From the NCBI GenBank assembly GCA_016214605.1, contig JACROD010000014.1, positions 41,074-105,073 of the forward strand: 64,000 bases of DNA. The letters are read 5' to 3'. The notes beneath the pieces are model-generated. The model did not search any database. It had not been told where the DNA came from and saw only the letters and a program-made list of their open reading frames with translations. The translations under genes were made by a program, and so were the position numbers. The number at the start of each line of letters is the position of its first letter. Positions within the stretch are counted from its first letter, which is position 1. Source of the stretch: Candidatus Kaiserbacteria bacterium. GTDB taxonomy: Bacteria; Patescibacteriota; Minisyncoccia; Phycocordibacterales; UBA2100. This document shows, in pieces, positions 1,088 to 49,020 of this stretch.

Positions 1088-2143
1088 ATGGCAATAGTGC
1101 AAAAACATTTTCTTTTCACATTGTTTTTGTTGGCACTTCTACTCACCGCGCCCATGGCGTATGCGCAGTCCGGAGCCATCTTCGTTAGTCCCAACCCTGA
1201 GGCAGTGGCGACCATTATCATGATTCCAAAAAATCCATCGCCCGGAGACACCGTGCACCTTACCGTGACCGGCGGATCACTACTCGACCTCCAAAACAGC
1301 ACTATTACTTGGTTTCAAAATGGCAAGCTTATTTCTAAAGGAGTCGGGTATGCGAGTCTCGACATTACCACTGGCACTCTTGGATCAGAGGATGACGTGA
1401 ATGTACAAGTTGACTCTCCGGACGGCGCGACGGCCGCGAGCTCGATCTCGATCATCCCGACACACGTCGACCTGCTCCTCGATTCCGATTCGTATATTCC
1501 GCCCTTCTACCGGGGCAGAGCACTGCCCTCCGCCGGTACTCACATGCAAGCGCAAGCGTTGGTATATTTCAAACGGAGCGACGGATCATTCATACCACCA
1601 AATTCGATCATATATACGTGGAAGGTGAATGGGCAGGTCATCGGAAATGTCTCAGGGAAAGGGAGGCAAACGGCAGTTCTTCCTGCACCGGTATTATTCG
1701 GGACCAGCAACGTCTCTATCGAGGCCGTATCGACCGATAATCTTTTTACTGGATCGGCATCTACCAATATCTCGTCTGTCGAACCTATTCTCATGCTTTA
1801 CGAAGACCATCCACTTTTCGGCATACTCTTTCATCGTGCCATGGGGCAAACGACCACTATTCCAGATTCTGAAATGACGTTTGCCGCAGTGCCTTATTTT
1901 ACTCAAGTGAAAAATCCCAACGACCCACAACTGCGCTATCATTGGATGGTAAACGGAAACCTTATCGTTGCCGACACTAACCATCCGAGTGAGATCGTTA
2001 TCAACGCCGACAAATCCAATGGGGAAGCCGCTATCACGCTTGCACTCAACCATGCGAGTAATTTTTTAATGAACGCAAAAGGAAGTTGGGACGTTATATT
2101 CAAGGTATTTGATCAAACAAACGCTTTTTTCTCTAATTTTTAA
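1088..2143 (+). CDS. secreted hypothetical protein
   Basis: internal ATG of track ORF 1007..2143 that begins right after the 1079 stop; N-terminal signal peptide MAIVQKHFLFTLFLLALLLTAPMAYAQ. Confidence 0.5.
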   Translation: MAIVQKHFLFTLFLLALLLTAPMAYAQSGAIFVSPNPEAVATIIMIPKNPSPGDTVHLTVTGGSLLDLQNSTITWFQNGKLISKGVGYASLDITTGTLGSEDDVNVQVDSPDGATAASSISIIPTHVDLLLDSDSYIPPFYRGRALPSAGTHMQAQALVYFKRSDGSFIPPNSIIYTWKVNGQVIGNVSGKGRQTAVLPAPVLFGTSNVSIEAVSTDNLFTGSASTNISSVEPILMLYEDHPLFGILFHRAMGQTTTIPDSEMTFAAVPYFTQVKNPNDPQLRYHWMVNGNLIVADTNHPSEIVINADKSNGEAAITLALNHASNFLMNAKGSWDVIFKVFDQTNAFFSNF

Positions 2144-3841: not shown

Positions 3842-3945
3842 GCTGGTACCGCCACCGGCGGCGGCGCATCAGGCAGCTTTTAGTAGATATTTGGAGCAGG
3901 CTGGGCCAGCATCCGGACCATAAGATTGATCGTTGTAATATTGTC

Positions 3946-4416
3946 TTATGCGGCGTATTTGATCACAACCCGTCTATTGCGCCCCTCACCTTGTGACTCG
4001 GTCTTTATGTTCGAGGCTTCGGCGAGTGTTGTGTGTACGATAAGGCGCTCATAGGCGCTCATAGGGGACAACTCGACATCATACTGGAACGAACGGGCCC
4101 GCTCGGCCATTATCAAAGCCTTCGACTGAAGGTCTTTGATCTGTTTGGTCCGGTGGTCATTGACATCAACCAGGAATAGGGGCTCGTTGCGCGTGGCGCC
4201 CTCCTGTGAACCAGCTTGTTTTTCGGCAATCTTTTTTACCAAAGAGTCGATCGCGTGGATCGTCTCGCTGTGAAATCCTATGAGAGATGCGCCGGAATCT
4301 TTCGTCACAATCGAATAGATCGTCTGTCCAGCAAGTTCGGTTTCAGTGACATCACGGTAATCAATACCGGCGGCATTAAGCAGATTCTTGACGATATCAA
4401 CGACATTGAGACTCAT
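3946..4416 (-). CDS. jag: Jag/KhpB R3H-domain RNA-binding protein
   Basis: 156 aa; position immediately downstream of yidC with overlapping stop/start; C-terminal R3H-like region (…RRVVIKYAA). Confidence 0.7.
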   Translation of the reverse strand: MSLNVVDIVKNLLNAAGIDYRDVTETELAGQTIYSIVTKDSGASLIGFHSETIHAIDSLVKKIAEKQAGSQEGATRNEPLFLVDVNDHRTKQIKDLQSKALIMAERARSFQYDVELSPMSAYERLIVHTTLAEASNIKTESQGEGRNRRVVIKYAA

Positions 4417-45869: not shown

Positions 45870-45941
45870 GCCCTTGTAGTTCAATGGATAGAACACCGGA
45901 CTTCTAAGCCGGCTATGGAGGTTCGATTCCTCCCGAGGGCA
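45870..45941 (+). tRNA. tRNA-Arg (anticodon TCT)
   Basis: 72 nt; anticodon loop cttctaa; T arm ggagg-ttcgatt-cctcc. Confidence 0.85.
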
Positions 45942-46085
45942 CTACTTCGCTCCGAAGCTTCGCAACGGAGCTTCGAAGTGCACGGCACTACAAATACCCA
46001 TATTACGTTGTTACCCTACAAGCGAAGTAGCCCTTCGTAGCTCAGTAGAGCGAAGGAGGGCATATTTGTGGCACGTACAACCGTG

Positions 46086-46333
46086 TTTGACAAATAGGTA
46101 TCAAGTATGCTACACTATCCAGTAGTTAGAACCTTGAAACAGAGCCAAGAAAAAGGCCGAACTACATAGGTGTAACCTATGTAGTGAATGTGCCACAGCA
46201 GAAAGCGACTCTCAAGGAGCTACGGCTCCGAGGTGCCGAATTCAGCAGAATTCGGCCAAAACATGGGTACTTTTCTGCTGTGGCAAGCCTTGGATGGTCC
46301 AAGGAACCGGCAGTACAACAAAAGGAGCTGACC
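46086..46333 (+). promoter_or_regulatory. promoter (TTGACA-17-CTACACT) and about 210-nt highly structured 5' leader of the DGR target gene
   Basis: hairpins ctacatagg/cctatgtag (46162-46184), 12-bp ccacagcagaaa/tttctgctgtgg (46193-46204 with 46272-46283), gccgaattc/gaattcggc (46235-46256), ggagc/gctcc, ccttgg/ccaagg; SD AGGAG at 46323-46327. Confidence 0.45.
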
Positions 46334-46906
46334 ATGTCACAGGACATGCTCGGTGGCTCAGGTGAAGACCTCGGCCTCATTATCGACTTCACGCAGAAGT
46401 TGCGTCATGGGGGGAGTGATTTTCGCGAAGCGGCGAAAAAGTTTCTCCGCAAGACACTTGTTACTTTGACGCTCGGCGACGGGCAAACAAAGACGCAGTT
46501 GCTTGCCGCCTACAACTGGGTCAGTGATGTCGCCCGCGCGTTTGTCATGTCGGAGCAGTTCCGCATGGCCTTTGTGCGCGAAGACGCCGACCTCGAGTTC
46601 GTCGAAGGCAGTGATTTCGATCACGATCCGTCCTCGGAAGAAGTACTCACCGAGCTCAAAAGGCGCGGCCTCGAAGAGCCGACCGAGGAAGATGCTCTGC
46701 GTTACGGTGCCACTTGCCCCGAAGGCAAGGACAAGCGCGCAGTGGTCTTCTTGCACAAGGCGAATCTATGGCGTGACCCGGGCGGCCACCTGGGCGTGTT
46801 GGTCTTCGACTGGGGTGGTTCGAAGCGCTACCTGGGCTGCTACCGGTTCGACGACCCGTGGTATCGGCAGCGCTCTCGGTTCGCCGGGCGCCGTCCCCGC
46901 AAGTAG
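46334..46906 (+). CDS. DGR target protein with C-terminal variable repeat (C-type-lectin/FGE-like fold expected)
   Basis: ATG with AGGAG SD inside track ORF 46184..46906 (track start is GTG inside leader hairpins); C-terminal 45 aa encoded by VR. Confidence 0.7.
   Translation: MSQDMLGGSGEDLGLIIDFTQKLRHGGSDFREAAKKFLRKTLVTLTLGDGQTKTQLLAAYNWVSDVARAFVMSEQFRMAFVREDADLEFVEGSDFDHDPSSEEVLTELKRRGLEEPTEEDALRYGATCPEGKDKRAVVFLHKANLWRDPGGHLGVLVFDWGGSKRYLGCYRFDDPWYRQRSRFAGRRPRK
46768..46902 (+). repeat. DGR variable repeat (VR)
   Basis: 135 nt matching TR 47243-47377 with about 17 mismatches, every one at a position that is A in TR. Confidence 0.85.
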
Positions 46907-46990
46907 CGCTTGGCCCTCGCACCTGTGCACTTGCACTCGGGCTTTTGCTCTTTGTCCTCGCGTCAGAAATGATGCGAGGGCTTTTGTTTG
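46904..46990 (+). other. GC-rich hairpin/terminator immediately 3' of VR
   Basis: gccctcgca (46912-46920) pairs with tgcgagggc (46970-46978), then TTTTGTTT; inner gtgca-ct-tgcac hairpin. Confidence 0.5.
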
Positions 46991-47242
46991 GTATAGTGAG
47001 AACGGTAGTAGGCGAATCTGCCGCAGATCACGGTTTGTGGCGGCTGAATCCAGTATCCTTCAGTCCGGAGCCGCAGAGATTACGGTCGATGCGGGAGCGA
47101 CTGTCGATATTCAAAAAACGAAGATACTTGGCGTGCGATGTCAGGGCATTACGATGCCGAATACGATACAGCCCGGAGAGTATTCGATGGGTGGTGGTAT
47201 CCGAGAATATCGGATGACAGGCATGGACGCCATTGCACGCAA

Positions 47243-47377
47243 ATGGCGTGACCCGAACGGCAACCTGAACGTGTTGGTCTTCGACTGGGATGGTTCGAAG
47301 CGCAACCTGAACTACAACCGGTTCGACAACCCGTGGAATCGGCAGAACTATCGGTTCGCCGGGCGCCGTCCCCGCAA
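47243..47377 (+). repeat. DGR template repeat (TR), adenine-rich (AAC codons)
   Basis: frame encodes N-rich peptide NGNLNVLVFDWDGSKRNLNYNRFDNPWNRQNY…; identical 3' end ggttcgccgggcgccgtccccgcaa shared with VR (IMH-like). Confidence 0.85.
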
Positions 47378-47407
47378 CTCTCTTCATTTCCCGACATATT
47401 CTCAAAC

Positions 47408-47758
47408 TCAAGAATGTGTCGGGTTTTGTTTTGTCAGTTGCCCCTGCCAGCCTCCGAGCATTTTGCCGATTTCGTCGCATTGCAGAGAAAGCGCGGCATA
47501 TTTTTTGTTGTCGAGAGACTTGCTTTCCCAGAGGATGAGGAGCAGGAGCTTTATGGTATCGAATTTGCGTATTGCGGTGCGCAGGTACGGCAATTTCTCT
47601 TGTTTGGCCAAGAATGCGGCAGCCGAAACCATCTCCATCACTTCGACGAACAGCATATCTACTTTTGATCCGACAGTGTACTGATGCAGTTTGGGCAAGG
47701 TAGAATGATACTCATGCCACAACAAATAAGCCTGTTTGATCCGCTCCAGAAGGGGCAA
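47408..47758 (-). CDS. avd: accessory variability determinant (Avd, four-helix-bundle family)
   Basis: 116 aa; C-terminal CDEIGKMLGGWQGQLTKQN parallels Bordetella bAvd AEVGRILGSWIARVNRKGQ; track start is TTG. Confidence 0.65.
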   Translation of the reverse strand: MPLLERIKQAYLLWHEYHSTLPKLHQYTVGSKVDMLFVEVMEMVSAAAFLAKQEKLPYLRTAIRKFDTIKLLLLILWESKSLDNKKYAALSLQCDEIGKMLGGWQGQLTKQNPTHS

Positions 47759-47763
47759 GAGTC

Positions 47764-48837
47764 GTGCGGGGGGGGGGGTACGCCTCTAGGATTGTTTTCA
47801 CTCATACCTACGAGGATATCATCTCTGTAGAAAATCTCCTTGCCGCGTGGCAAGAGTTCGTCCGCGGCAAGCGCCAGAAGCGAGATGTGCAGGATTTCCA
47901 ACATCGCCTGATGGACAACATCCTCGCGCTCCATCGCGATTTGAAAAACAAAACGTACCGTCATGGCGCATACGAAGCCTTCAAGATCAATGACCCGAAG
48001 CCGCGCGACATACACAAGGCGACCGTGCGCGATCGGCTCCTGCACCATGCGCTCTATCGCCAGCTCTACCCCTTTTTCGACCGCACCTTTATCGCGGATT
48101 CGTATTCATGCAGAAAAGGTAAGGGGACGCACAAGGCGATGGATCGGTTTCGGTCATTTGCATACCAAGCGAGCAAGAATCATACGCGTACTGTCTGGGT
48201 GCTCAAATGCGACATCAGGAAGTTCTTCGCATCAATAGATCAAGCAATACTACTCAACATCGTCGAGAAATACATTCCCGACAAAGACATCAACTGGCTC
48301 ATCAGTGAGATCGTCGTGAGTTTCCAGACCCACACAACTATGCCTATAGGACGATCTGTGTGTATGGGGAGAAAAGGCCTGCCTGACCAGCAGGCAGGTT
48401 TGCCGCTCGGCAATCTCACCTCGCAACTGCTCGTGAACATCTATATGAACGAATTCGACCAGTTCGTGAAGCACAAGCTCAAAGTGAAACATTACGTGCG
48501 CTATGCCGATGATTTTGTGGTCCTTTCGCATGATCGCGCAGAGCTCGATCGGCTCCTTTCCAAGATCGAATCTTTTTTGCAAGATAAACTCAAATTACAA
48601 TTACATCCCGACAAGGTTTCGATCTCAACATTCGCCTCAGGAGTGGACTTCCTTGGATGGGTGCATTTTCCCGATCATCGCGTATTGCGGACGAGTACGA
48701 AACGACGGATGATGCGAGGTATTGTCGGACTGGAAAAAGATGATATGCGCGTACGGTCGTACCTCGGACTGCTTTTGCACGGAAATGCAGGAAGGCTTGC
48801 AGTATGTGTTGATTCTCTATGCACACCGCTTGCATAG
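47764..48837 (+). CDS. DGR reverse transcriptase
   Basis: 357 aa; RT motifs including YADDFVV (YxDD) and GLPLGNLTSQLL; N-terminal ENLLAAWQEFVRGKRQKRD typical of DGR RTs; track start GTG. Confidence 0.85.
   Translation: MRGGGYASRIVFTHTYEDIISVENLLAAWQEFVRGKRQKRDVQDFQHRLMDNILALHRDLKNKTYRHGAYEAFKINDPKPRDIHKATVRDRLLHHALYRQLYPFFDRTFIADSYSCRKGKGTHKAMDRFRSFAYQASKNHTRTVWVLKCDIRKFFASIDQAILLNIVEKYIPDKDINWLISEIVVSFQTHTTMPIGRSVCMGRKGLPDQQAGLPLGNLTSQLLVNIYMNEFDQFVKHKLKVKHYVRYADDFVVLSHDRAELDRLLSKIESFLQDKLKLQLHPDKVSISTFASGVDFLGWVHFPDHRVLRTSTKRRMMRGIVGLEKDDMRVRSYLGLLLHGNAGRLAVCVDSLCTPLA
47768..47778 (+). repeat. G11 homopolymer tract within codons 2-5 of the RT ORF
   Basis: gtg cgg ggg ggg ggg tac. Confidence 0.8.
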
Positions 48838-48867: not shown

Positions 48868-49020
48868 ATGAAATTCATGCAATCCGGTATTTTGCCACTC
48901 ATCGGCGCGATGATCGTTTTTGGCGTATCGCTCTGGGATTCCGCAATGACACTCGAAGCCGCGCTCGGTGTCCTGATCTTCCTATCGCTTTATCTGTTCC
49001 TTTTCAACAAGACCGGATAG
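48868..49020 (+). CDS. small membrane protein (50 aa)
   Basis: MKFMQSGILPLIGAMIVFGVSLWDSAMTLEAALGVLIFLSLYLFLFNKTG, not in track. Confidence 0.25.
   Translation: MKFMQSGILPLIGAMIVFGVSLWDSAMTLEAALGVLIFLSLYLFLFNKTG

Follow-up and report, generated by a model that had tools for sequence, protein, structure and literature searches.

Does the repeated segment beside a reverse transcriptase (RT) gene in an ultra-small bacterium belong to an intact diversity-generating retroelement (DGR), and if so, how is the RNA that would serve as its template organized? The locus lies in a 64,000-nt stretch of Candidatus Kaiserbacteria contig JACROD010000014.1 (GenBank assembly GCA_016214605.1; positions 41,074 to 105,073 of the forward strand), which is hereafter called the window and supplies all coordinates unless a related locus is named. 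A first-pass annotation made from the sequence alone had proposed a complete DGR, with a target gene ending in a variable region (VR), an adenine-specific template region (TR), an accessory variability determinant (Avd), and an RT. All of these parts are present, the differences between VR and TR are confined to TR adenines, and the components are homologous to known ones. We put the probability at about 0.9 that the cassette is an intact chromosomal DGR of the type found in the Candidate Phyla Radiation (CPR), with the gene layout known as Architecture B3. The target protein matches HZC00_01990, from a Candidatus Kaiserbacteria metagenome-assembled genome (MAG), at 100% identity; the source organism is an ultra-small bacterium, and the element is chromosomal.

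VR and TR differ only at template adenines

Ungapped comparison of positions 46768-46902 with 47243-47377 (offset 475) yielded 16 mismatches over 135 nt, every one of them at a TR adenine. With 30 adenines in TR, the hypergeometric probability of this outcome is 6.3e-13. At the mismatched sites, VR carries G ten times and C and T three times each. The first-pass annotation had reported a repeat of this length with all differences at TR adenines; that description stands, including the tabulation by TR base that it had suggested (16/16 at adenine), while its count of roughly 17 differences is corrected to 16. Read in the target frame, TR encodes WRDPNGNLNVLVFDWDGSKRNLNYNRFDNPWNRQNYRFAGRRPRN, in which eight AAC codons and one AAT codon account for the Asn-rich peptide remarked on earlier. 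Seventeen VR codons are variable, corresponding to ~10^16 possible peptides, and a stop codon is reachable by mutation from a single one of them (AAG, residue 164). Homology ends at 46903/47378, one base before the target stop codon, where VR has G and TR has C, and the same G versus C break terminates homology in every related locus.

Both copies close with the GC-rich block CGGTTCGCCGGGCGCCGTCCCCGCAA, as had been noticed at first pass. It occurs exactly twice in the 64-kb window, against 0 copies expected by chance, which leaves a single VR for this TR; no second copy of VR or TR turned up when the window was searched. The GC-rich 27 nt that are identical in the two copies may serve as the initiation of mutagenic homing site (IMH) and its TR counterpart (IMH*). 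In some DGRs, IMH and IMH* have the same sequence (Wu et al. 2018, NAR 46:11).

The RT and Avd resemble those of DGRs

Profile searches bore out two further calls of the first-pass annotation. The YADDF-motif RT matches RVT_1 (Table 1) and is closest to the Bordetella enzyme bRT, and the minus-strand 116-aa open reading frame (ORF) between TR and RT matches Pfam bAvd at threshold (E = 5e-10). The best solved relative of the RT is 8ub7_A (bRT; E = 2.8e-46), followed by a group II intron-type RT at 3e-19; we take 8ub7_A to be the Bordetella phage enzyme because its chain numbering fits the bRT residues named by Handa et al. The residues of bRT that contact template or dNTP are K29, F66, R74, I76, I181, G182, and Q187 (Handa et al.). 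By alignment, the window RT retains the equivalents of K29, F66, R74, I76, G182, and Q187, with Leu in place of I181. Its catalytic motif is YADD, within VRYADDFVV, and motif 4 ([I/L]GxxxSQ) reads LPLGNLTSQ. The RT family is huge, with 7,988 of 8,000 candidates scoring at E <= 1e-60. PF22296 was found on 120 of 120 Avd homologues among the matches listed, and a sequence search of the PDB with the window Avd returned no match.

Relative to bRT, the window RT contains an insertion of ~22 aa between palm segments, at residues 172-202 (48277-48369). Just downstream, at 48378-48398, is a GC-rich inverted repeat (CCTGCCTG..CAGGCAGG). At the other end of the gene, the reverse complement of the first avd codons (TTG CCC CTT; 47752-47760) reads AAGGGGCAA on the RT strand, which places a Shine-Dalgarno-like AAGGGG 8 nt before the RT GTG; this sequence is kept in relatives.

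In a different reading, the repeat would be a partial gene duplication and the RT that of a group II intron or retron, as the public record suggests for the RT. NCBI labels the protein a 'group II intron reverse transcriptase domain-containing protein', and NCBIfam TIGR04416 matches it at E = 6e-44. That match amounts to 150 bits against a cut-off of 300, however, and the retron St85 (62 versus 235), Drt3a (72 versus 200), and Drt2 (55 versus 390) models are likewise far below their cut-offs, so the public name is only generic. Furthermore, among solved relatives bRT leads the next match by 27 orders of magnitude, and Rfam found no group II intron or retron RNA. A duplicate that had drifted would not have all 16 differences at a single base of one copy, and nine other loci show this pattern too. 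With the adenine bias present in ten loci, the duplication account is effectively refuted, and we assign it a negligible probability.

The cassette follows the common CPR layout

Exact-protein look-ups and collection scans identified ten distinct loci that share the order target (+), TR (+), avd (−), and RT (+). Nine related loci (our designations L004, L008, L010, L014, L017, L021, L023, L026, and L031) carry the cassette together with an adenine-biased VR/TR pair; adenines account, for example, for 19/21, 18/19, 17/18, and 23/26 of the mismatches. The first-pass annotation had considered the order TR, reverse-strand avd, RT uncommon. It is instead Architecture B3, TR-(avd)-RT, which makes up 90% of the CPR DGR set (Wu et al. 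2018, NAR 46:11), and the window cassette, with its target upstream, fits this architecture; the layout is therefore ordinary for this host group. CPR DGRs form their own clade (DGR clade 2), and their targets lack recognizable domains (Roux et al. 2021, Nat Commun 12:3076). The window element resembles them in its Patescibacteria/CPR host, its gene order and orientation, its chromosomal location, and its short target devoid of a transmembrane segment or known domain, and we see no essential difference from them.

A conserved RNA domain precedes TR

The interval of ~340 nt between VR and TR is not a mere spacer, as it holds the target terminator hairpin, a −10 box, and a folded domain of 237 nt. 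The template looks like an RNA gene of its own, ~430 nt long, with transcript ends that we place at about 47003 and 47433. The hairpin with a T-run that the first-pass annotation saw behind VR is the second of two post-VR hairpins (46954-46981); the T-run follows it, and it is terminator-like for the target gene. By eye, related loci have a hairpin at the same position after VR, with differing sequences. Downstream, TATAnT lies at the same distance from the 5' domain in eight of ten related loci, with TG one base upstream in six of those eight.

To assess the 5' domain, we used alignment A2, comprising 10 loci, and its RNAalifold structure. Pairing is maintained in 95.6% of the cells, and 36 of the 56 pairs show compensatory changes. 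None of 500 shuffles reached the observed value, and sliding the 3' partners by 1-3 columns reduced pairing to 32-48%. The RNA fold of the 5' domain is supported by covariation. Helix 7, a 12-bp helix formed by 47131-47142 and 47229-47240, ends 2 nt before TR and has compensatory changes in 9 of its 12 pairs; both of its strands are upstream of TR. The domain also contains the invariant blocks AGTAGGYGAAT and GAAGNNACTTGGYG, present in 30 and 25 fetched loci, respectively, including some loci reached only through Avd. At both gathering and permissive thresholds, Rfam recognized only tRNAs in the window, leaving the target leader, the 5' domain, and the TR flank without a match.

On the other side of TR, the stem-loop in the 3' flank folds with z = −5.9. 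All eight of the other distinct loci that were folded have a stem-loop of ~10-12 bp at the same place, again followed by a U-run. The sequences of the stems vary from locus to locus, and a bulged base together with a loop of 4 nt is seen in several. By analogy with Bordetella, this stem-loop is a candidate Avd-binding element that may double as an intrinsic terminator.

Pairings of the flanking sequences with TR or with each other were also considered. RNAalifold and single-sequence folding both pair AGU..GCG of the AGUAGGCG block (47007-47014) with the TR end CGC.ACU. We regard this pairing as a lead only, since both sides are invariant; if true, it would position the 5' domain where the Bordetella element primes cDNA synthesis. 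Two other candidates were rejected on our reading of the sequences. Pairing of the G-run near the RT start with the TR 3' CCCCGC fits the window and L008 and fails in L004, L010, L023, and L031. A stop duplex between the 3' linker UCUUCAUUU and the A-rich 5'-domain block AAAUGAAGA is unsupported, with central mismatches that go uncompensated in the window, L004, L010, L023, and L026.

A length-variable G-run abuts the RT start

The divergent avd/RT junction contains a homopolymer of 11 G residues next to the GTG start of the RT. Ten distinct related lineages have runs of G7 to G13 at the corresponding position, and their RTs are 59-77% identical to that of the window where measured. In three lineages, the run is the only indel between near-identical contigs from different samples: L004 and L006 have G9 and G7 at 99.92% identity (3918-3926 and 2823-2829, respectively), L042 and L043-45 have G8 and G9 with 0 mismatches in 3.3 kb (~1475-1485 in L042/L043), and L035 and L036 have G10 and G13 at 99.8% identity (~1470-1485, minus strand). 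The Gly codons in the run are all GGG in the seven run-bearing loci examined (7/7), suggesting that it is the homopolymer and not the peptide that is selected. By our count, GGG is found near the N-terminus in ~47 of the 120 closest RT homologues. On these sequence comparisons, we conclude that the homopolymer itself is probably under selection; its role may be to help initiate translation, to space the divergent genes in a tunable way, or to act as a real on/off switch.

The RT start codon lies right at the run in the window (GTG-C-G11), L004 (ATG-G9), and L010 (TTG-G9). As this is the only nearby start and sits directly 5' of the run, a change in length would shift the RT frame. In L006 and L021, the equivalent start codon is out of frame. 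In L046-L050, a G11 of constant length in five samples precedes a canonical ATG by 13 nt and is not part of the called ORF. By our reading, the called start falls past the run position in about half of the 120 closest RT homologues. In L051 (~640-800), the public assembly breaks at the avd/RT junction into runs of N and long poly-C, marking an assembly trouble spot; this locus was not used because the junction is an assembly artefact.

A somewhat better than even chance, in our estimation, goes to the run being an ordinary Shine-Dalgarno-like or 5'-untranslated element whose length differences are sequencing or assembly errors, and not a genetic switch. The constant, untranslated G11 of L046-L050, the many RT homologues called to start after the run, and the assembly break of L051 all fit such an element. 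Harder to reconcile with it are the three independent lineages in which the run is the sole indel between contigs 99.8-99.97% identical from different samples, the frame dependence in the window, L004, and L010, and the uniform GGG codons. Homopolymeric-tract contingency loci include the poly-G tracts of Campylobacter and Neisseria. The runs described here resemble those tracts in being G8-13 in size, in their placement at an ORF's 5' end or in the gap that separates divergent genes, and in differing in length between otherwise identical sequences. They differ in that the tract of some relatives is outside the ORF and that switching is conjectural here. When the literature was searched for DGRs in combination with homopolymeric tracts or phase variation, the papers obtained dealt only with phase variation in general.

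Is the element active?

Natural VR diversification is seen in a related lineage. In a relative with 50% identity, proteins P0013 and P0015 are identical at 141/141 scaffold positions; within VR, agreement is limited to 3 of the 16 positions that correspond to adenine codons but extends to 26 of the 28 remaining ones, and P0018 behaves alike. Across the eleven closest homologues, adenine-codon columns contain a mean of 5.1 distinct residues, compared with 2.1 in scaffold columns. The window cassette itself has uninterrupted reading frames for RT, avd, and VR, and the frame of TR is still rich in AAC codons. All its parts are intact, and we take it to be active or recently active.

Several points weigh against an intact, working DGR. 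A lone consensus sequence cannot demonstrate current activity in this population. The Avd assignment stands only at the Pfam threshold (40.3 bits versus a cut-off of 40) and falls short of that of NCBIfam DivGenRetAVD (53 bits versus 80). The AGUAGGCG pairing with the TR 3' end, CGCAACU, involves invariant sequence and shows no covariation, and no upstream-downstream duplex around TR resembling the Bordetella cPRT Stop was supported. Finally, since the RT GTG is followed by a slippage-prone G11, RT expression could be off in part of the population.

A rival view is that the cassette is a fossil, which once diversified VR and is now inactive with VR frozen, for instance through loss of RT expression by G-run frameshift in most cells. 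Decay does occur among relatives. Locus L016 (Saccharibacteria MAG contig CAZDPP010000016.1, 3501-4700) retains the target and the first half of the 5' domain, with remnants AGTAGGCGCAT at 4176 and GAAGATACTTGGCG at 4290, and then runs into ORFs that we read as Glu-tRNA amidotransferase-like (gatC/gatA); no TR, avd, or RT was found there. Similarly, L001 has a target homologue with no DGR nearby. The out-of-frame start codons of L006 and L021 and the single consensus available for this organism also agree with a fossil. The window, in contrast, has an RT in frame with its GTG through G11, the YADD motif, an open avd, an AAC-rich TR, and a 5' RNA domain with the invariant consensus blocks. We consider a fossil improbable and favor an intact DGR.

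The target belongs to a large family of small C-type-lectin-like proteins

Searches of Pfam and NCBIfam with the 190-aa target returned no match, and no hydrophobic N-terminal segment was seen in its sequence. The alignment-based AlphaFold2 model is confident (pLDDT 86.8). As modeled, the target is a compact C-type-lectin-like domain with VR at its C-terminus, the outcome of the fold prediction that the first-pass annotation had recommended. Foldseek comparison with PDB and BFVD gave nothing significant. The part in surface or host interactions that was put forward for this protein at first pass is a conjecture.

The core of ~145 aa is the mark of a very large group of small proteins: the family profile retrieved 2,282 cluster representatives at E <= 0.001, including 716 at E <= 1e-10. 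Pfam had no match for nine of the ten members tested, and the tenth matched only an unrelated methyltransferase domain. Some family proteins hold two or three tandem copies. A few members have an apparent signal-like N-terminus, by eye, or a methyltransferase fusion. In seven of eight family sequences read, an RFAA(V/R)(R/P)-like motif stands at or near the C-terminus and looks VR-like.

Upstream of the gene, promoter-like sequences as strong as that of the window were found by eye at the same place ahead of the target homologues of L001, L007, L008, L010, and L016. The first-pass annotation was right that the leader is strongly structured: the 223 nt at 46118-46340 that cover it fold at −88.6 kcal/mol (z = −6.67 versus shuffles). 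At its core is a long hairpin with arms GCCACAGCAGAAAG (46192-46205) and the complement (46271-46284). The arm motif (GCCRYAGCWGAAAG plus complement) is kept in four related lineages (L007, L010/L021, and L013-15). We rejected covariation of this hairpin, as the changes in L007 and L010 break pairs and are mostly not compensatory; the leader thus shows sequence conservation only, and its structure is not proven by covariation. Within the conserved hairpin at 46192-46284, the window leader has extra hairpins inserted. The more distant L001, L004, L008, and L016 appear by eye to share another leader motif, GGCTGRYGG ... GGCTCTTT.

Feature map and neighborhood

Table 1. Window coordinates of the DGR cassette and adjoining features.
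Feature	Position	Strand	Remark
tRNA-Arg(TCT)	45870-45942		upstream of target
Target promoter, sigma-70-type	46087..46116	+	TTGACA-18-TACACT, TG before −10 box; promoter scan 10/12
Structured 5' leader of target gene	46118..46333	+	Shine-Dalgarno sequence AAAGGAGCTGACC ahead of ATG
DGR target gene	46334..46906	+	190-aa protein
VR	46768..46902	+	encodes target residues 146-190; 16/135 positions differ from TR
IMH-like GC-rich VR 3' end	46876..46902	+	same as TR 3' end (IMH*-like); 27 identical nt following the last mismatch
Two hairpins after VR	46905..46981	+	fold z = −2.9
Extended −10 promoter of template RNA gene (putative)	46989..46997	+	TGgTATAGT
Conserved structured 5' domain of template RNA	47004..47240	+	237 nt, 10 helices
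TR	47243..47377	+	30 adenines
TR 3' flank	47378..47433	+	conserved linker CTCTCTTCATTTC, 13-bp stem-loop (47390-47423), U-run
avd (accessory variability determinant)	47408..47758	−	116 aa, TTG start
DGR reverse transcriptase	47764..48837	+	357 aa; RVT_1 E = 5e-26
G11 homopolymer	47768..47778	+	divergent avd/RT junction, next to RT GTG start

The tRNA-Arg that had been placed ahead of the target is present (Table 1). The cassette was further described at first pass as lying between a pilMNO cluster and a giant surface-protein gene. PilM upstream and an 1180-aa FN3/peptidoglycan-binding protein downstream hold up, and the supposed pilN and pilO have no Pfam match. The tRNA and the pilus genes are incidental neighbors, because the cassettes of relatives adjoin unrelated genes (RF-1, response regulator, YafQ, and RuvX). 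Between the tRNA-Arg and the target promoter (45943-46086) are two hairpins and a tRNA D-arm-like stretch (GTAGCTCAGTAGAGCG), which neither ARAGORN nor Rfam called and which may be a tRNA remnant. Directly 3' of the RT, 48868-49020 encodes a 50-aa hydrophobic ORF. It is not kept beside the RT in relatives, where MFS transporter or NDK genes occupy that place.

Comparison with Bordetella and a proposed mechanism

The best-characterized point of reference is the Bordetella BPP-1 DGR (mtd-avd-TR-brt). In common with it, the window element has adenine-specific TR-to-VR transfer, an RT homologous to bRT, an Avd, a C-terminal VR on a C-type-lectin fold, a GC-rich IMH-like end, and a stem-loop just 3' of TR that is comparable to the Avd-binding element Sp3-33. 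In contrast, the window avd is on the opposite strand, between TR and RT, IMH and IMH* are identical, the RT bears its ~22-aa insertion, the element is cellular and not phage-borne, and the target is not a tail fiber. The RNA flanks diverge as well. In Bordetella, bRT-Avd needs ~20 nt upstream of TR and a 140-nt downstream spacer, which contains an Avd-binding stem-loop, the priming adenosine, a strand of the stop duplex, a single-stranded 'thumb ring', and a long bRT-binding stem-loop (Handa et al.). Here, ~55 nt separate TR from the terminator, whereas the Bordetella spacer of 140 nt is essential; conversely, TR is preceded here by a structured domain of 237 nt, at a place where ~20 nt of avd are enough in Bordetella. 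Putative Avd-binding stem-loops and stop duplexes have been described for many DGRs, CPR members included (Handa et al.). Compared with other variable proteins of C-type-lectin fold, namely Mtd, Treponema TvpA (2y3c), and the archaeal variable proteins (Handa et al. 2016), the window target is much smaller, with its core of ~145 aa, and has no sequence match to FGE-sulfatase, DUF1566, or any other Pfam family.

From these comparisons, we propose how the element may work. A dedicated RNA gene of ~430 nt would be transcribed from the extended −10 promoter, giving a template RNA with, in order, the folded 5' domain, the 135-nt TR, the short conserved linker, and the stem-loop with its U-run. The RT and a pentameric Avd, encoded divergently just downstream, would bind this RNA and copy TR into cDNA, a step proposed because of the homology to Bordetella bRT-Avd. 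Misincorporation by the RT opposite the 30 template adenines would produce a mutated cDNA that replaces VR at the 3' end of the target gene, with the GC-rich 3' block acting as IMH/IMH*. In this manner, 17 codons on the C-type-lectin-like domain would be randomized, for ~10^16 variants. As a working guess, the 5' domain may supply the RT-binding, priming, and stop functions that are located 3' of TR in Bordetella, and the 12-bp helix abutting TR may be the stop element, again as a working guess.

The most far-reaching version of this scheme joins a free-standing, permuted template non-coding RNA, with RT binding, priming, and stop all assigned to the 5' domain, to gating of the RT by poly-G slippage at its start. 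We hold this combination to be speculative and rather unlikely as a whole. If the slippage part were true, it would amount to a stochastic on/off or tuning switch for hypermutation. Our statements on the transcript ends, on the RNA elements that prime and stop cDNA synthesis, on what the target binds and where in the cell it resides, and on present-day activity are inferences.

Implications for CPR retroelements

As a DGR, the element is one more example beside the thousands catalogued in CPR bacteria, with parts that the public record labels generically. The 5' RNA domain and the G-run are the concrete additions that we did not find described. A search of the CPR DGR literature that did not extend to Paul et al. 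2017 or the supplements of Wu et al. turned up no description of the 5' RNA domain, of a separate RNA unit, or of the G-run.

The family comparison yields a model of the entire template RNA, backed by covariation, for the architecture that dominates in CPR bacteria, and thereby a concrete RNA for reconstitution with RT-Avd. It also lets one ask whether the Bordetella priming and stop mechanism generalizes with another arrangement of flanking RNA. The conserved, length-variable G-run, if it is a true switch, would show how cells limit a hypermutator. The C-type-lectin-like target family, with ~2,300 clusters, deserves a family definition and a search for its ligands.

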